The translations under genes and the position numbers were made by a program. From Wickerhamiella versatilis (taxonomy: Eukaryota), in contig JAQOWU010000008.1 of assembly GCA_030867685.1 (NCBI GenBank), positions 4,278,001 through 4,342,000 of the forward strand: 64,000 bases of DNA, given 5' to 3'. This document shows positions 2,356-46,136 of the stretch, in pieces. Numbering within the stretch: the first letter of the stretch is position 1; every line of letters starts with the position of its first letter. The notes beneath the pieces were generated by a model. The model ran no database searches. It had not been told where the DNA came from and saw only the letters and a program-made list of their open reading frames with translations.

Positions 2356-4164
2356 TTAATGATTTTCCCTATCACTGGAATCATTCCACGCTGTCTGTAG
2401 CGTAGATTTTTTCGCATTCAGAACATCATCGTCGGTATCGGAACTTTGGCTTAATCTGCTGCTTCCGAGATGCTGATATCTCAAAAGTTCTGCATCAGTT
2501 TCCACCTGGGAATTCACCCTACTTACAGGCAATGAGGTGTAGGAGGCTGAGGTCTGCGACTCCTGGTCACCTGGCATTCGCTCACTCTCAGCCTGACTCG
2601 AAAAGGGGCGTTCGTAAAGTTCTGGAGTTGGCCGAATCGATCCAGAAGACATCCGTTTCAATGATCGAGACGAATTATCATAATCATATTCAGTCCTGGT
2701 CTCAATGCTGGTATCGTGACTAGGGTCCCTGGAAATCTGAACAGCCTCTGCCTGATTTGCCTCTGCAATCTGATGATGAACTTTGGTTTCCGCAGAAAGC
2801 TTGGGTGTCTTTGGGCGCAGCGGGGTTACTTCTTCGATATCTGATGCATGTACACTGGCCTCTGGAACCCAAGGGCTGTCTTGAAATCCTTCTGCTTCGA
2901 ATAAAGCAGAGTAACGCTTGGGTACATTTTCCAAGGAATTTTCAATCGATGTTGATCTTCTCTGTCCTGACGAGGAGGAGTGCCCTTGGCGCCAGTTTTC
3001 ATTATATGATTCGCCATCACCACGTGTACTAGTTGGACTGTACGCCTCTAGTATAGTTTCAGGTGTAGAATAATACGAAGATCGACTTCCACTACTTGTT
3101 TCTGAATTGTCATATGACGATGACAGCGAAGACCATGAGGACCAGCTGCGGGCATTGCTCCATCTTTGCTCCTGTTCTTGCTCCCATGAGGCACGCTGTT
3201 TTCTCAATATCGCTCGATGCGCAATAGCACGCCTCAGGTATGCTCCCCATGTATCCACAAAGTCCATGGCTTCCTGAATGTCTATTATCTCAGGTTCTAC
3301 TTCTTCGCGAGGAACATGTGATAGCCTCCAGGACTTGGGGCGTATTTTTGCTTTCGTCGAAGTAGGACTGGGCCGTTTATCTTTGCCCTCTCGAGATACC
3401 GCTCGTGGTGGTGTCTGCGGTAGAGGCAATACATTTTCAGGCTTCGATGCATTATAAGGGCCTTCTTTTGGCAAATTTGGATCTTTTGTAGTAGAATCTG
3501 CCTTCTGAGGCGTACTTATATCCCTTCTCAGACCATAAGCATTAGCAGGATCACCTGGGGCTGGTGTGTGTGTCTGTTCTCGTTCAGGAAGACTCACCTT
3601 GACCCAATTATCTGTGCTATTATTACCTGTATTAGATTCTTCTTTTGGAGGCAATTTCTCAGTACTGATGTTAGGCAACTGGCTTGATTGGTCCAAGGGT
3701 ATTAGGTTAGGTGGAAGCGGATTTGGCTGCGCAGTATTAGATTTCCAAACCTGGACAGGAACGGATGATCCTCGATAACGGGGTTTTGGACGCCTATAAA
3801 GAAGATCCCTGCAACGGAAGCGATAAGTTGCTCGGGAAGTATCTGGTGTTATCAAGTTTGATGGCTTACGCTGAAGATATCGCTTTGAAAATTTATAGGT
3901 CCTTTTTGAACGTTGGTTCCAGAACAGTCGGCCAAAAAACCGCTTCAATCGTTGTAATGGACTCGGTTTCAAAGCATGACGTCGTCTCAGCAGAGTAGAA
4001 TTGGTCCGCTTGTTGGTGTTCCCAGGTATATGAGCTTTGTACGGCTGCGGTTGATGTAGAGTCGAGCCTACCACCTGCCAACCATCATCCGACTGCATGC
4101 AATAATCTTTGATTGGGAAATTGTAAAATGTAAGTAGTTTGGTGGCTGGCATAAGGCCAGCCAT
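2356..4164 (-). CDS. Hypothetical Ser/Pro-rich, largely disordered protein
   Basis: 602-aa ATG ORF with a basic N-terminus and one helical-looking segment (DFVDTWGAYLRRAIAHR); family not recognised. Confidence 0.7.
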   Translation of the reverse strand: MAGLMPATKLLTFYNFPIKDYCMQSDDGWQVVGSTLHQPQPYKAHIPGNTNKRTNSTLLRRRHALKPSPLQRLKRFFGRLFWNQRSKRTYKFSKRYLQRKPSNLITPDTSRATYRFRCRDLLYRRPKPRYRGSSVPVQVWKSNTAQPNPLPPNLIPLDQSSQLPNISTEKLPPKEESNTGNNSTDNWVKVSLPEREQTHTPAPGDPANAYGLRRDISTPQKADSTTKDPNLPKEGPYNASKPENVLPLPQTPPRAVSREGKDKRPSPTSTKAKIRPKSWRLSHVPREEVEPEIIDIQEAMDFVDTWGAYLRRAIAHRAILRKQRASWEQEQEQRWSNARSWSSWSSLSSSYDNSETSSGSRSSYYSTPETILEAYSPTSTRGDGESYNENWRQGHSSSSGQRRSTSIENSLENVPKRYSALFEAEGFQDSPWVPEASVHASDIEEVTPLRPKTPKLSAETKVHHQIAEANQAEAVQISRDPSHDTSIETRTEYDYDNSSRSLKRMSSGSIRPTPELYERPFSSQAESERMPGDQESQTSASYTSLPVSRVNSQVETDAELLRYQHLGSSRLSQSSDTDDDVLNAKKSTLQTAWNDSSDRENH

Positions 4165-6179: not shown

Positions 6180-8849
<2,670 letters not shown>

Positions 8850-9609
8850 CTAGCTAGCCCACGTGTCTCTATCCTTAGTATACTATAAACACTAATTGAG
8901 ATGAGATCGGAAAATCGCCAAGGCACTCATTTTATAATAGTCATAAAGCTTTAAACCGCAATTGATAAAGTCAAATTTCTGATTTTTTTTCCTTCATTTG
9001 GAAAGTTAATGATGAAATTCCGTCTGACTTCTCCATGCGCAGCAAAATGTATCTGTTTCTCTATTTCTCAGCGTGCAGCTTGCTAGCTGCACGCATATAA
9101 GTTATTTAAGCTTATAATAAAGGGATTAAGACTTATCAAATGACCTCACAATGGATTGGAGATCAAACTCTAGTCTAATACTTCCAAGGTTCTCATCTAT
9201 TCCAGAAAGCATCATCATAGACGCATCAAGCTTAGAAGGCACCACACTTTCTGGCATCAAGACAAGCGAATCTACCGGTCCGGTCAATCAAGGGAATGTA
9301 GCAGATATTTCGACATTGAAGGTCTTTGGTATTGTGTTTTTTATGCTTTGAGGCAGTTAAGTACCCAAATTCCAACAATACTGTTATATCAAAAGAAATA
9401 ATTTGCAAGAGGGATTAGAGTCAGATTCATTCATTCATTCGGAGCGACTGTGGTAAAGTAGCAACGATTTGTATCTCCTGAACAAATGCGCATTCCAATA
9501 TTAAATAGCTATATAGCAAGATTATGATCTAGCAGGATCAGGAAATTTAGGCAGCCGAACCTACTGGGTGCGTAGCCGAAGCCTTAAACCTAAACCTGGT
9601 TCTGGAATC

Positions 9610-10683
9610 ATGGTCGGTCTGAGCGATGACATTTTGAGCTTATATGTACTGCCATTGCTTGACTACGATGACCTGAATAGTTTTTCCCTGGCATGTAGAC
9701 GGTGGATGATACTTTCCCAACCATTGAGGCACCCTCTACTTTATGAAAAGCTCTTTGCGAAGGATACCGACGGTGTTCAAAGAAGTACTGCTACTAACTG
9801 GAAGCAAAGATTTGATATTAGGAAAAAATACCGTCTATTCGCATGGGGAAGGTACTTCGGACGCCTCAATGGAGCGAGTTTCAACCAGCCGACAGAATTA
9901 ATTGATCGAGGACCTGTAAGGAGCATATTCCTGGGGCCAGAGGGACCTGGAGTTGTAACGTTCGAAGGAAAGGTTGTATATCGCAGCTGGAGACCGCATG
10001 AAATACCGGCGTTTATTTATAATGTTTTTCCATACCGAGACGATTTAATTGCCATAGACTCCAAAAACCAGGCTTTTCTACTGGGTGGGACTGGCTTAGC
10101 TTTTCGTGGACAAAAGATAGCGGACGACGTCAAGATGATTGCAGGTGGTTTTGTGCTTCGAACAACCGGGCAGGTGAGCCATCACGGCTCTCTTGTGGCA
10201 CAGGGAGTGGATCAGATCTCTTCTAATGGACTCTACCTCGACTGGAATGGCAACATTGGCTCATTAACTGGTGATACTGGTTTATTGCCGTTGTTCAATG
10301 AAGCCATACGAGGAACCAACGAGAGGTTTACCAAGTTGGTAGGTTGCAATAACGATACGTATATGATCTCTAATCATGGCCGTTTATTTAATTGGTATGA
10401 AAATAAACTCAGCGAAATCGATCTACCTGAGGCTGCTGCAGACGTGGTCGCAGGGTCAGCCACGAACGACACGAGGCCTCAAGTATTTTTATTGACAGTA
10501 ACAGGCACTATTTATGCATATGGTGAATCACGCAGTAGCGATTGTTCTAGTTTCGGGGTAGGGAACCTACCAAACACCGGTGATACTGTAAGACTGGCAT
10601 CTATGCATCTGGTTTCCAGGGGTCCCGCAGTCAGCATAGTTACCGATGGATACTGTACAGCAGCTCTTATGCTACCCCCCTAA
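9610..10683 (+). CDS. F-box protein with RCC1-like repeats (Saf1-like)
   Basis: F-box LSDDILSLYVLPLLDYDDLNSFSLACRRW, then WKQRF..R...FAWG and G.IYAYG; ATG at 9610. Confidence 0.7.
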   Translation: MVGLSDDILSLYVLPLLDYDDLNSFSLACRRWMILSQPLRHPLLYEKLFAKDTDGVQRSTATNWKQRFDIRKKYRLFAWGRYFGRLNGASFNQPTELIDRGPVRSIFLGPEGPGVVTFEGKVVYRSWRPHEIPAFIYNVFPYRDDLIAIDSKNQAFLLGGTGLAFRGQKIADDVKMIAGGFVLRTTGQVSHHGSLVAQGVDQISSNGLYLDWNGNIGSLTGDTGLLPLFNEAIRGTNERFTKLVGCNNDTYMISNHGRLFNWYENKLSEIDLPEAAADVVAGSATNDTRPQVFLLTVTGTIYAYGESRSSDCSSFGVGNLPNTGDTVRLASMHLVSRGPAVSIVTDGYCTAALMLPP

Positions 10684-10787
10684 AAACATATAGCAAGCTC
10701 TTATTACTACTTCTCTAGTAAACAATTGTCCTCCCCTCCATATATTTAAGTTAATGCGTCGCGTACCAATTTTCTGACTCAGGAAAA

Positions 10788-11246
10788 ATGGTGGCGGACG
10801 ATTTTTTCCCACCGTTCCAGGAGGTTATGAAACCTCTCCCTGCAGAAGAGCTGCGCATACTTTCACGTCAGTATAAGAATGAGCGACATCCTAGTGTTCA
10901 AACAAGTTTCAATTACGCTTGGGGGCTTGTCAAGTGTAAGGACAAATCCGATATTCGTAGAGGCATCACACTGCTTCAAGACGTATTCAAGGATACCCCT
11001 GAACGTAGACGTGAGTGTCTTTACTATCTTGCCGTGGCACATCTCAAATTGACAGAGTATGGCGCGGCAAGACGCTACGCAGATACCCTGATGGGGTACG
11101 AACCTCGTAATCGGGAGGTCATAGCGCTTCGGCAAAATATCGAAGACAATTTGAGCAAAGAGGGGATGATTGGCGTCGCAATTATTGGCGGTGCTTTCGC
11201 AATTGGAGCCGCAGTATTGAGTACGATACTGCGGCGTAAGAGATAA
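10788..11246 (+). CDS. FIS1: Mitochondrial fission protein Fis1
   Basis: QTSFNYAWGLVK and RRRECLYYLA TPR motifs, C-terminal TM tail ending RRKR. Confidence 0.95.
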   Translation: MVADDFFPPFQEVMKPLPAEELRILSRQYKNERHPSVQTSFNYAWGLVKCKDKSDIRRGITLLQDVFKDTPERRRECLYYLAVAHLKLTEYGAARRYADTLMGYEPRNREVIALRQNIEDNLSKEGMIGVAIIGGAFAIGAAVLSTILRRKR

Positions 11247-12145
11247 TTCTAGGAGACGCCGTTGCCCAGCTTGTGCTTGATAAGTATTACTCACTACCGC
11301 GAAATGGAAAGCCCTCGGTGCGGGCGAATGGTGTGAAGGAGTGGACTGTGGTTGCTGGTGTAGTTATTTGTATTCGAGGAAGCCTAGAGTGCATTTCAGT
11401 TGCCACAGGTGTCAAGGCTATGCCTGATACATCTTTGCACAATGGTGAAGTCGTTCATGATATGCATGCAGAGATTTTGGCTTTGCGAGCGTTCAATTTG
11501 TATCTTCTTGAACATGACCTGAATGATTTTGAATCCTATCTTTATGTATCAAAGCCCCCTTGCGGTGATGCATCTCTGAGCTTGTTTCAGGGTGAGGTAT
11601 GGCCTTCTTCAGCTGGAGACTCCACTGAGATCATTCGAGGAAGGGCACATTTTGGAGCACAAGGACGAATCCGGACGAAGCCGGGACGGGCTGATTCGGC
11701 CTTGACGATGTCGAAATCTTGTAGCGACAAATTGGCTCGCCGACAGGTACAAGGATTTGCATGCTCTTTACTCCGTAGCAAGGGTCAGCAATGGTATCTG
11801 TCAGGTCTAGTGTGCCCTGAAATACCAAAAGTCGATTTTCAGAGAGCTTTCAGCAGATGGGAGCCAATCAGTCAGTTTAAATGGCTGGAAACTGCATTAA
11901 AACCACCTGATGGGGATTCTCCAACAGCAATATCCTTGGTGTGGACACCAGATTTGTATGAGGTCTTATTTAACGGCCGCCTTCAAGGTTCCCGTAAACC
12001 ATCGCGTCTCAGTCGTCTTAGGATGGCACAATCCGCCGGAATGTCTCCAAGCGAAGCGTATTACAGCACTAAGGTTCGTAACTTCTATCCACCAGGCTGG
12101 GTGCGAACGGCAAGTGATGATTTTTATCCTAGTTTGTCACAGTAG
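11246..12145 (+). CDS. TAD1: tRNA-specific adenosine-37 deaminase (ADAT1 family); start site unresolved
   Basis: DMHAEILALRAF, PPCGDAS, RTKPGRADS and SKSCSDKLA motifs; frame open from 11240, with no ATG before 11420. Confidence 0.85.
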   Translation: MLGDAVAQLVLDKYYSLPRNGKPSVRANGVKEWTVVAGVVICIRGSLECISVATGVKAMPDTSLHNGEVVHDMHAEILALRAFNLYLLEHDLNDFESYLYVSKPPCGDASLSLFQGEVWPSSAGDSTEIIRGRAHFGAQGRIRTKPGRADSALTMSKSCSDKLARRQVQGFACSLLRSKGQQWYLSGLVCPEIPKVDFQRAFSRWEPISQFKWLETALKPPDGDSPTAISLVWTPDLYEVLFNGRLQGSRKPSRLSRLRMAQSAGMSPSEAYYSTKVRNFYPPGWVRTASDDFYPSLSQ

Positions 12146-12272
12146 CAATTACTTAGTTGGCGATCTTGATTCGTCTGTATATAATTTATTCAATTGAACC
12201 AAACTGCGAGTCTAGACTGAAGGAATACTAAGCTAAGAGGTCTATATGAAGGCACTAGCCGCCTGCGGCCAT

Positions 12273-12818
12273 TCACACTTCATTATCACTTTCACCTTCC
12301 TCGCCTCCTAATTCCTCGCCCTCTGCAACACCATCAGCCCCATCGAATCCTCCCGCGGCTGCTTCTCGTTGCATCTCTGCTGCGTATTGGGCACCGCGCA
12401 GTACCTGGGCAACCTGATCATTATCCCCAGCAAGGTCAATAGGGCGTTTACGTGAGGAATTCAAGGCATCAGGCGTGGCACCGGCTTCTATCAAGAGTTC
12501 AACAAGGGGAACAGCAGTTTCGGAGCTAGGAGTTCGGGCCGCAAAATCCACAGCGAAGTGCAACGGTGTGGAGCCACCCATCTTATTTTTGGGATCAATT
12601 TCCACGCCCTCCTGATCAAGGAGAAGATCGACAACTTCAAAAGACCCGGACTGGCATGCCACGTGAAGCATCCTATCACCAAGAGGGGTGGTGAGAGTGT
12701 TTATGGTGTTAGCTATCTCCTCAGGGGACTTTCCAGTGAATAAAGATTCAATAAGTGCCTCATTATTGGAGCGGGCCGCACCAATCAACTGTTCTTGCAC
12801 AGAAGCTCCTTCCGACAT
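12273..12818 (-). CDS. Small ankyrin-repeat protein with acidic tail
   Basis: GDRMLHVAC, GSTPLHFAV and LLIEAGA ankyrin consensus; resembles the YCR051W family. Confidence 0.85.
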   Translation of the reverse strand: MSEGASVQEQLIGAARSNNEALIESLFTGKSPEEIANTINTLTTPLGDRMLHVACQSGSFEVVDLLLDQEGVEIDPKNKMGGSTPLHFAVDFAARTPSSETAVPLVELLIEAGATPDALNSSRKRPIDLAGDNDQVAQVLRGAQYAAEMQREAAAGGFDGADGVAEGEELGGEEGESDNEV

Positions 12819-42863: not shown

Positions 42864-43155
42864 AATGTTTTTAAATGCAGCTGCACCTTATAAAATATCG
42901 CCTTAAGTGGATAAGTTGATGGTATTTTTGGCTGCTTAGGATAAAACCATGCCACATCGCTAATGACCGTATTAATTAGCATCTATTATATTTCAAGAGT
43001 AAAATCGGATAATTCCTGGCTAGTTGATTTCTCTCACTGTTGCGTCGGCATCTACCCATTTCTGGGGCACTGCACGTGACGAATCTCAAACACCAATCCC
43101 TTACCCTGCATATAGTTTGAGTAACTTACGCTTTCTGCGACAACGTATAGGGAGC

Positions 43156-44754
43156 ATGCAAGCGCCTGCGCTACGAGGTAGACGTGCCTTTAGGCTTGTT
43201 TTCTCCTTAACTGCGTTATTGGCCCTTTGTTACTTCATTTTCACCACCTTCACTGGTCACCCCCCTGCTAATCCGTTATCTGGCGCGTCGAGACATTTAT
43301 CAAATACCACCGCAGAGCCAGTATCAATTATTCGCGAAGCATGGAGCCATTATTACACGCTTGCTCGTAGTCTTTTATATGCTGAGTTTGAGCATTTTGG
43401 CCTTCCGTCTACAGGTCTCCGGGTTTATGAGAAGAACATGCAATCTTTCCAGGAGCAACTAGAATCATCACTACAAGAAGCCCAAGATGTATCGTGCGCA
43501 GAGCCTGTAAAACGATTAAAGGATTTATGGTCCGAGAAACTAACTGTCGTCGAGGAAAAATGCAAGAATGACAAGGTTGAGGTTGAGACCCTGGTTGATG
43601 AGGCGAGGAGAGCTGCTGAGGAACGGTGGGAGGTATGCAAGAATGATCTCAACGATGAAAACTGTTCAGGCGATATCAAAGAGCAGCTTATAGACCTCTC
43701 AAACCGTCATCACCATGATGTGAAGTCGGAAAGAGAGTTCGATCTTAACAAGGAGCACTTCCGCTTTTGGAAAGATAGAGATGGTATGTTTGTCGACGAA
43801 TTAGAGAGGATGCAAAAGGAGATGTTGAAGCCTGATGCGGTACCAAAACAACTACGTTCCGGTGTGGGTCCCAGGCCGGAACAAATCCTTATTTTGACAG
43901 GATCTGACTACTCTGACTCCACGACGTTTAGATGGGAGCTAAATCAACGTGTCTTTAAGAACCGCCAAGACTACTGTGACGCGCATGGTTATATTCATGA
44001 GTTTGTGAATTTCACTCGTTATGCACCTGCAAGAGACCATGTGGAGCACCCAGTATGGTTTAAGCTACCTGCTCTAGCAGAGACTTTCCATAGGTACCCT
44101 GACGTTGAATGGATTTGGTGGCTTGACCTGGATGCTCTCATCATGAATGGTGGGTTGAAGCTCGAGGAACATTTGTTACATCCTGACGTACTGAAAGAGC
44201 GTATAATGTACAAACGGCCTGTTGCCTCAATAGAGGCTCTCTACTCTCTGGGCGGCACTGCACCTGACCGTGATGAGATTCAGGTAGAGGATCTGAATTT
44301 TATCATAAGTCACGACTGGCTTACACTCAATGCTGGATCATTCTTTGTGCGTCGTACGGCTTTCACGGATGTGGCTTTGCAGATGTGGTCTGACCGGGCC
44401 TATATTTACGATTTTGAAGGCGAGCGTGTTTTCGAGCGTCGCGAGCAAGATGCGTTTGTACACATGTGGTTCAACCATGATGCCATTAAAAGGAGGACCG
44501 CAATAGTCCCACAGCGCTTGATAAACTCATTTATGAGTGATGGACGCTGGGAGTCTGACTGGACAATGATATACGAAAAAGGGGATTTTTTACTACATTT
44601 CGCAGGTTTCAATAATGATGAAGAGTTCACGGATAAATTCTATGAAGTCTGGCCTATGGTGACCCCAGCACCGGGTAAAGCCGTGGAACCTCTACCACCA
44701 CGGCCTGATCCGGAGGTTAGTGAAGAAAACGAATCAATTGAGGAAGAACTATGA
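43156..44754 (+). CDS. GT34 family Golgi galactosyl/mannosyltransferase (Mnn10/Gmh-like)
   Basis: Type II TM anchor, coiled-coil stem, NRQDYCDAHGY, WIWWLDLDALIMN, LNAGSFFVR, GDFLLHFAG. Confidence 0.88.
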   Translation: MQAPALRGRRAFRLVFSLTALLALCYFIFTTFTGHPPANPLSGASRHLSNTTAEPVSIIREAWSHYYTLARSLLYAEFEHFGLPSTGLRVYEKNMQSFQEQLESSLQEAQDVSCAEPVKRLKDLWSEKLTVVEEKCKNDKVEVETLVDEARRAAEERWEVCKNDLNDENCSGDIKEQLIDLSNRHHHDVKSEREFDLNKEHFRFWKDRDGMFVDELERMQKEMLKPDAVPKQLRSGVGPRPEQILILTGSDYSDSTTFRWELNQRVFKNRQDYCDAHGYIHEFVNFTRYAPARDHVEHPVWFKLPALAETFHRYPDVEWIWWLDLDALIMNGGLKLEEHLLHPDVLKERIMYKRPVASIEALYSLGGTAPDRDEIQVEDLNFIISHDWLTLNAGSFFVRRTAFTDVALQMWSDRAYIYDFEGERVFERREQDAFVHMWFNHDAIKRRTAIVPQRLINSFMSDGRWESDWTMIYEKGDFLLHFAGFNNDEEFTDKFYEVWPMVTPAPGKAVEPLPPRPDPEVSEENESIEEEL

Positions 44755-45926: not shown

Positions 45927-46136
45927 ATGAACGCCATTATTCTTGCTATTGCTTCTATCGCTGCTGCCCAGTCTACTGGTGGTGCCGTCCAGCAGATCGG
46001 TGACGGCCAGGTCCAGCAGCAGACTGCTACCTCTGCTGCTGCTGCCGCCACCTCTGCTCCTGCCCAGGCTAACGGTGCTCCTCAGATGGCTGCCGCTGGT
46101 GGTGCCGTCGCTGCCGTTGCCGCTTACTTCCTCTAA
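45927..46136 (+). CDS. Small GPI-anchored wall protein with one PIR repeat (Cwp2-like)
   Basis: Signal peptide, QIGDGQVQ, omega-like ANGA plus hydrophobic tail; strong codon bias; TATATAAG at 45882. Confidence 0.88.
   Translation: MNAIILAIASIAAAQSTGGAVQQIGDGQVQQQTATSAAAAATSAPAQANGAPQMAAAGGAVAAVAAYFL

Follow-up and report, generated by a model that had tools for sequence, protein, structure and literature searches.

An ATG-less TAD1 frame joined to the FIS1 stop codon in Wickerhamiella versatilis, a candidate for coupled termination-reinitiation at a non-AUG codon

This study concerns the junction between two tandem genes, FIS1 and TAD1, in a 64-kb stretch of Wickerhamiella versatilis DNA (assembly GCA_030867685.1, contig JAQOWU010000008.1, forward-strand positions 4,278,001 to 4,342,000), hereafter called the window. 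Positions are counted from its first nucleotide, and all features described lie on its + strand unless stated otherwise. The window is a very compact piece of a budding-yeast chromosome, in which 49 frames extend over 150 codons or more from stop to stop and no tRNA gene is found. The FIS1 open reading frame (ORF) occupies positions 10788-11246 and encodes 152 residues from ATG to TAA, with the Pfam domains Fis1_TPR_N and Fis1_TPR_C. It ends CGT AAG AGA TAA, the stop codon being 11244-11246. The TAD1 frame, which is shifted by -1 relative to FIS1, is closed by a TAA at 11237-11239 and then stays open from 11240 over 301 codons to 12145, starting with E-I-I-L-G-D-A-V-A-Q-L-V-L-D-K-Y-Y-S-L-P-R-N-G-K-P. 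Its coding part, counted from an ATT codon to the stop (11246-12145), is assigned to an ADAT1-type tRNA adenosine deaminase by Pfam, alignment and predicted fold. The first in-frame ATG is at 11420-11422 and corresponds to residue 61. Upstream, the TAD1 frame contains no ATG anywhere under FIS1, and readthrough from an upstream ATG in that frame was rejected for this reason. The central statement of the initial annotation, that TAD1 has no ATG and abuts the FIS1 stop, is confirmed on direct reading, as are its coordinates, frames, stops and first ATG for both genes.

Only two near-cognate codons are found in the TAD1 frame 5' of the first predicted helix, ATA at 11243 (with G at -3) and ATT at 11246 (with A at -3). 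These adjacent codons (ATA ATT, 11243-11248) are the candidate non-AUG starts of TAD1, since the first methionine of relatives aligns to them. The FIS1 stop overlaps both, ATA at 11243-11245 and ATT at 11246-11248 (A-TAA-TT), so that the stop and the putative restart codon are as close together as in reinitiation of the termination upstream ribosome-binding site (TURBS) type, although the codon is not AUG. The junction sequence AUAAUU is one letter away from the AUAAUG of influenza B M1/BM2.

As for the protein, TAD1 is, judging from its domain, motifs and fold, a tRNA adenosine deaminase of the ADAT1/Tad1 type, with the activity being predicted. The Pfam A_deamin family matches the frame at 57.3 bits, the cut-off being 27 (E = 2.3e-15). 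In an 18-sequence alignment, all 45 invariant columns are kept (45/45), including those holding the catalytic and zinc motifs HAE (H76, A77, E78), PCGD (P107-D110) and SKSCSDK (S158-K164), which bears out the earlier claim that all catalytic motifs are intact. A profile match to solved ADAR2 deaminase chains starts at profile position 5 (E = 1.6e-19). The structural model produced with AlphaFold2 (AF2) has a predicted local distance difference test score (pLDDT) of 76.9 and a predicted template modelling score (pTM) of 0.81, and with this model Foldseek retrieves the ADAR deaminase structures 9dp5_A (E = 5.5e-15) and 1zy7_B (E = 2e-14). TAD1 of the window is thus predicted to share domain, catalytic motifs and fold with ADAT1/Tad1, but it is shorter (301 codons, compared with 310-415 in most relatives) and has no ATG. 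The AUG-less N-terminal segment (11246-11419) is part of this fold. The 60 codons ahead of the ATG at 11420 are predicted to form a helix (residues 2-18) and two strands (residues 38-45 and 48-56) with pLDDT values of 83-96, and they align to the start of the ADAR2 domain. A start at 11420 would therefore remove three structural elements, in line with what the initial annotation had anticipated.

To compare the junction with other sequence data, we aligned reads and contigs to positions 10400-12400 of the window (2001 bases), using the RNA run X23 and the contig runs X19 and X1. X23 consists of raw RNA reads with the same species label, from a strain that is ~1.5% different from the window, while the X19 contig differs by 39 substitutions and 1 gap; the divergence among the window, X23 RNA and X19 contig is 1.5-2%. 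X1 shows no difference from the window, may be its source and is hence not independent, and a further run, X20, contributes a 234-base piece only (11326-11559), which adds nothing. The initial annotation had pointed out that a G at 11248 in raw reads would restore an ordinary ATG. No T>G change is present among the differences listed over the 2001 bases for X23 (~300x at 11248), X19 and X1, seven weakly supported differences being left aside. T at 11248 is genuine, and ATT is common to the window, X23 and X19. A sequencing error at this position was rejected, since ATT is seen both in ~300x of X23 RNA and in the diverged X19.

The X23 reads cover 10794-12160 evenly, at ~250-340x as far as ~12000 and less from there to 12160. 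With both mate orientations summed, the bins between 10802 and 11940 all have a depth of 169-344, that of the junction reaching 308, compared with ~7-14 upstream of 10794 and ~50-60 at 12075-12208. Mean depth is ~280 in FIS1 bins and ~270 in TAD1 bins, the neighbouring genes standing at ~7-14 and ~110-137. Read starts accumulate at a single position, 10794, and so do read ends, at 12160; no pile is listed inside FIS1 or TAD1, although in this unstranded, short-read library an internal start giving less than one-fifth of the depth would escape listing. The simplest reading is one unspliced transcript of ~1.35 kb (~10794-12160) holding both ORFs, probably on a single molecule. The + strand of 10700-12300 has a single TATATA element, at 12178, 3' of TAD1. 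The read-start pile (31 read ends) is found 6 nucleotides (nt) 3' of the first base (A, 10788) of the FIS1 start codon, with depth rising from ~14 upstream to 169 in the next bin. In an RNA starting at 10794, the first AUG would be that at 10827 (Met14), giving a Fis1 without its N-terminal arm; residues 1-13 of Fis1 have only one change in the sister species. This pile may reflect the existence of two isoforms, an extremely short leader or an effect of the library.

The same reads bear on whether Tad1 might be made as a C-terminal extension of Fis1, either by splicing from a donor at 11011 or 11221 to the acceptor at 11252, or by a -1 frameshift before the FIS1 stop. The initial annotation had suggested both, and the motifs are indeed present in fitting phases: GTGAGT at 11011-11016, GTACGA at 11221 and TAG at 11250-11252. 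Moreover, the public annotation of a Candida oxycetoniae protein of 499 residues (P0081) joins Fis1 and Tad1, with all three Pfam domains. However, splicing is contradicted by the RNA, in which we found 0 joints among 2457 X23 reads at ~300x, where 3 reads would have sufficed for a report. The proposed donor GTGAGT and acceptor TAG are therefore unused in X23, and no branch-point consensus for this TAG was found on direct reading. A frameshift would have only 11240-11245 (GAGATA) at its disposal, which contains no slippery heptamer of the form X XXY YYZ, and no indel was seen in the X23 RNA reads at the junction or inside either gene. Trans-splicing and RNA indels were rejected on the same reads, whose loose ends comprise one of 3 reads at 11397 and 3 further loose ends without a position. 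Any Fis1-Tad1 fusion would, in addition, place 300 residues behind the Fis1 tail anchor. P0081 is a gene model only, and a tight tandem of this kind probably misled its annotation. We regard a fusion as extremely unlikely.

Next, we considered whether the AUG-less TAD1 is under selection. Since ATT is found in the window, X23 and X19, the common ancestor of the three already had ATT by parsimony. Between the window and X23, 13 changes are listed in TAD1, 9 synonymous and 4 non-synonymous (N95K, I210T, A219T and I231V). The ratio of non-synonymous to synonymous rates (dN/dS) is 0.14-0.18, for 214-260 synonymous and 642-689 non-synonymous sites, and under neutrality a count of non-synonymous changes as low as this has a binomial probability of 0.0006-0.003. 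Ahead of the ATG at 11420, all three changes (codons 15, 20 and 53) are synonymous and in third position (P = 0.023, on small numbers). The AUG-less part of TAD1 is thus, as far as these small numbers go, under purifying selection, and TAD1 looks like a live gene in the window and X23 lineages.

Related proteins point the same way. The nearest named relative of Tad1 is that of Wickerhamiella sorbophila, at 45% identity; the other matches comprise further relatives at 49-50%, one strain cluster at 99% and a sister species at 73-74%. Database calls from two further strains (P0003 and P0124) show an uninterrupted frame from residue 27 up to the stop, and P0124 keeps the frame despite an in-frame two-codon insertion near the C-terminus and four substitutions. 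In the sister species, one call of TAD1 (P0125) begins at the GTG equivalent, residue 27, and another (P0004) at the ATG equivalent, residue 61. Its frame is open over residues 28-60, which lie 5' of the first Met of P0125 and are identical to the window at 27 of 33 positions (82%), compared with 202 of 275 (73%) for the whole protein. Sister-species Fis1 (P0127) has the same length of 152 residues, is 90% identical and ends in the same C-terminal LRRKR; its contig is as long (102,347 bases) as that of the sister-species Tad1. The lineage is an isolated one: once the sister species is set aside, identity drops to 55% for the next relative of Fis1 and to ~50% for those of Tad1.

These data have to be weighed against the possibility that TAD1 is a young unitary pseudogene, which makes no protein, is still open because the loss is recent and is kept as a long 3' untranslated region of FIS1. 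The absence of an ATG, and the out-of-frame ATGs ahead of the first in-frame one, would fit such a relic, and S. cerevisiae tad1 nulls are reportedly viable (Gerber et al. 1998). Lineage X19 fits it as well. There, TAD1 has five private changes, of which two are nonsense, K15 to stop (11282, which with 11284 gives TAA) and E70 to stop (11447), two are missense (Q212L and S227P) and one is synonymous, while FIS1 has synonymous changes only. TAD1 is a pseudogene in X19, and this lineage a natural knockout; the two nonsense mutations, at codons 15 and 70, imply that the gene is dispensable. The hallmarks of a unitary pseudogene, a dN/dS near 1 together with disabling mutations, are however seen only in X19 and not in the window or X23. 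Decay of TAD1, which the initial annotation had considered, is accordingly real in X19, with its two stops, but not in the window and X23, where the frame is intact at a dN/dS of ~0.15 and where the 9 synonymous and 4 non-synonymous changes accrued after the ATT state. All 45 invariant family columns are intact, and the frame is open not only in the window and X23 but also in P0003 and in P0124 with its in-frame indel. Since the stretch ahead of the ATG is as constrained as the rest of Tad1 in two species, with 82% identity in the sister species, an untranslated relic is hard to accept, and we consider it unlikely.

If TAD1 is live, translation might alternatively start further downstream, at the GTG at 11318, at another GTG or at the ATG at 11420, yielding an N-terminally shortened enzyme. 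This would agree with the database calls, P0003, P0123, P0124 and P0125 starting at the GTG equivalent and P0004 at the ATG equivalent, and GTG 11318 is kept in both species. Such calls are no proof of use, however, because the caller permits GTG starts, and the contexts are poor, with T at -3 for GTG 11318 and C at -3 for GTG 11273. A start at 11318 would lose the conserved helix, whose two differences between the window and X23 (codons 15 and 20) are both synonymous. The start at ATG 11420 was rejected, as it would delete the confidently predicted helix and two core strands and is preceded by two out-of-frame ATGs, at 11304 and 11328, with a stop TGA at 11334-11336; within this segment (11304-11336), scanning ribosomes would be caught before reaching 11420. 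We therefore hold a downstream start to be improbable.

The position of the start and the history of the gene pair can be traced in relatives. Across the alignment of 18 sequences, ATT 11246 coincides with the first Met of three proteins (P0006, P0008 and P0016) and ATA 11243 with that of P0007. These four are database gene calls, whose first Met is known at the protein level; among more distant loci, L001-L005, L009 and L074 were confirmed in the DNA itself to begin with ATG. A metagenome scan yielded 80 TAD1 loci, of which the best is 41% identical, and neither the sister species nor the 45-50% relatives are among them. Six of these 80 loci have FIS1 ahead of TAD1 on the same strand, with spacers of 46-47 nt (L001 and L002), ~260, 497, 751 and 1779 nt. 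The N-terminus of Tad1 in L001 and L002 is that of the Candida albicans protein P0042, and in these Candida albicans-like contigs (positions 2930-3000 of each) the 46-47 nt between the FIS1 stop and the TAD1 ATG include an A-run. Such short spacers mean that the tight tandem is not special to the window lineage, and the pair may be co-transcribed in the Candida albicans-like contigs too. The same-strand pairs, together with the P0081 fusion model, indicate that the tandem is old. By this comparison, the spacer appears to have shrunk to a one-base overlap in the window lineage, and what was an ATG is now ATT.

A hairpin is predicted just upstream of the junction. It spans 11208-11235, within codons for the Fis1 tail anchor, and ends 8 nt before the FIS1 stop. 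It has 10 perfect pairs and 2 more, making 12 pairs with a G-U. Perfect inverted repeats of this kind occur three times in the 64 kb (11208-11235, 9071-9094 and 46014-46041), compared with a mean of 0.6 in 30 shuffles. One X19 change, 11229 C>T, falls within the hairpin, where it turns a G-C pair into G-U while being synonymous in FIS1. RNA folding of 11150-11330 is mildly unusual (z = -2.23, with 6 of 200 shuffles as good). A role for this hairpin in reinitiation is speculative.

How, then, might Tad1 be made? With a 152-codon ORF containing many AUGs ahead of it on the main RNA, leaky scanning is implausible. This leaves two routes, reinitiation at the TAA at 11244-11246, or scanning on a minor transcript that starts in FIS1 after the ATG at 11167. 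We favour the first, namely that TAD1 is a live, AUG-less gene whose start at AUU or AUA is coupled to FIS1 termination on a bicistronic RNA, and we give it, with translation being something that we infer, a probability of roughly 45%. TAD1 would have lost its ATG and would be co-transcribed with FIS1 as one unspliced mRNA of ~1.35 kb. A fraction of the ribosomes ending FIS1 would be incompletely recycled and would restart on the spot at the overlapping codon, Tad1 being started with initiator methionyl-tRNA (Met-tRNAi) at the near-cognate AUU at 11246 or the adjacent AUA at 11243. The low yield to be expected of such a mechanism would suit a non-essential tRNA-Ala A37 deaminase. Restart at ATT 11246 coupled to FIS1 termination was also the first of the three routes suggested in the initial annotation; the even coverage over both ORFs and the purifying selection make it the best candidate, short of proof. 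More tentative still is the fuller picture of a native operon-like bicistron, in which ribosomes finishing Fis1 would restart on AUAAUU without an AUG, aided by the hairpin, and in which selection would maintain this organization in two or more species.

The second route, by which a live TAD1 would be started at AUU or AUA by cap-dependent scanning on a minor monocistronic mRNA that begins in FIS1 downstream of ATG 11167, would make the bicistronic RNA irrelevant to Tad1 synthesis. The evidence from constraint and from start position applies to it exactly as it does to reinitiation. Its leader would be free of upstream AUGs, no ATG being found in any frame within 11168-11303, and ATT has an A at -3. 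Sole non-AUG starts are known, in yeast Hfa1 (PMC6582344) and in human TEAD1 (AUU) and EIF4G2/DAP5 (GUG; PMC5666671). The initial annotation had argued that there is no intergenic space for a separate promoter, which is true of the junction but leaves room for a promoter inside FIS1. The 46-47 nt spacers in the Candida albicans-like contigs suggest that a TAD1 promoter inside FIS1 may even be ancestral. On the other side, there is no depth step at the junction and no read-start pile listed in FIS1, within the one-fifth limit given above. We judge this route unlikely, about as much so as the pseudogene.

Several points weigh against coupled reinitiation. Its support consists of sequence, RNA coverage and constraint, from which we infer both the use of AUU or AUA and the coupling to FIS1 termination. 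Short, unstranded reads such as those of X23 may conceal two equally abundant transcripts that overlap, or a minor internal start. AUU and AUA are weak initiators. The core of TURBS motif 1, which we take to be TGGGA (pairing with helix 26 of 18S rRNA), was not found on the + strand of 10812-11857, the host 18S rRNA not having been compared, and the significance of the hairpin was judged post hoc. The evidence from the sister species comes from protein calls. TAD1 is dispensable, and the species may be in the course of losing it; the private changes in X19 (1 synonymous, 4 not) do not differ significantly from the rest (9 to 4; Fisher P = 0.12). Finally, translation of a second cistron is normally very inefficient in yeast, and so would be reinitiation after a 152-codon ORF (PMC11952965).

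Two further observations concern the surroundings of the junction. Leaving possible sources aside, food and food-fermentation metagenomes from four studies (P4, P8, P9 and P10) are among the runs listed with at least 84% of the words sampled from positions 10700-12200 of the window. Two other long frames of the window, 6180-8849 on the - strand and 43024-44754 on the + strand, have their first ATG 46 and 44 codons past the upstream stop, respectively.

Eukaryotic nuclear mRNAs are taken to be monocistronic and started at AUG, and reinitiation after long ORFs is, to our knowledge, known almost only from viruses and engineered constructs. At the FIS1-TAD1 junction, a conserved housekeeping enzyme lacks an AUG as well as any intergenic space, but still shows purifying selection and shares its RNA coverage with FIS1. 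No paper joining TAD1, FIS1 and yeast was found in the literature searched, supplements aside, and searches of the literature on bicistronic transcripts returned nothing of the FIS1-TAD1 kind. A non-AUG start that overlaps the stop of a co-transcribed upstream gene, in a native yeast pair, is thus undescribed in the literature searched, both of its components being known separately. If true, FIS1-TAD1 would be the first cellular fungal pair in which a long ORF is followed by termination-reinitiation, which would moreover use a non-AUG codon. Were Tad1 indeed made from the FIS1-TAD1 RNA, the pair would offer a natural and genetically tractable yeast system for coupled termination-reinitiation and non-AUG starts, with an X19-type knockout as a control. 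The locus also illustrates how the compaction of a genome can make two old tandem neighbours overlap. For annotation it carries a warning, because ATG-based callers truncate TAD1, and the database calls begin at residue 27 or 61.

Three kinds of known system invite comparison. The first is viral termination-reinitiation, as in influenza B M1/BM2 with its UAAUG, the calicivirus TURBS, CHV1 and HvV190S. There, as in FIS1-TAD1, the downstream ORF begins at the stop of a long upstream ORF, and a structured element lies in the upstream coding region, as does the hairpin at 11208-11235. In BM2 and feline calicivirus, reinitiation remains fairly efficient after the AUG has been changed to non-AUG codons, an AUA one codon upstream can serve as the restart codon, and the signal works in yeast cells (PMC3035654). 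A review describes restart at a near-cognate codon as still employing Met-tRNAi, and the fungal viruses CHV1 and HvV190S as relying, 5' of the stop, on a pseudoknot or on sequence of the coding region (PMC10275272). FIS1-TAD1 differs from all of these in being a cellular nuclear pair, in having a putative restart codon that is naturally non-AUG and in that the TURBS core TGGGA was not found on the + strand of 10812-11857.

The second kind comprises genes with a sole non-AUG start, HFA1, TEAD1 and DAP5. Like TAD1, they have no usable in-frame AUG, have conserved coding sequence 5' of the first AUG and have a purine at -3. In contrast to TAD1, their start codons are 5'-proximal on mRNAs of their own, whereas the TAD1 codon overlaps the stop of the apparently co-transcribed FIS1 and lies behind a 152-codon ORF with many AUGs. 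The third kind is that of yeast bicistrons. In S. cerevisiae, a second cistron can be translated by inducible 80S-based reinitiation, as reported in PMC11952965, and Wickerhamiella/Starmerella yeasts have potentially bicistronic ent transcripts of acquired bacterial genes, as described in bioRxiv 10.1101/399394. FIS1-TAD1 resembles both, with two ORFs apparently covered by one RNA and the second possibly translated without a dedicated element. The former, however, is a selected engineered construct, and the latter are acquired bacterial genes with AUGs and spacers, whereas FIS1-TAD1 is native and ancient and lacks both a spacer and an AUG.

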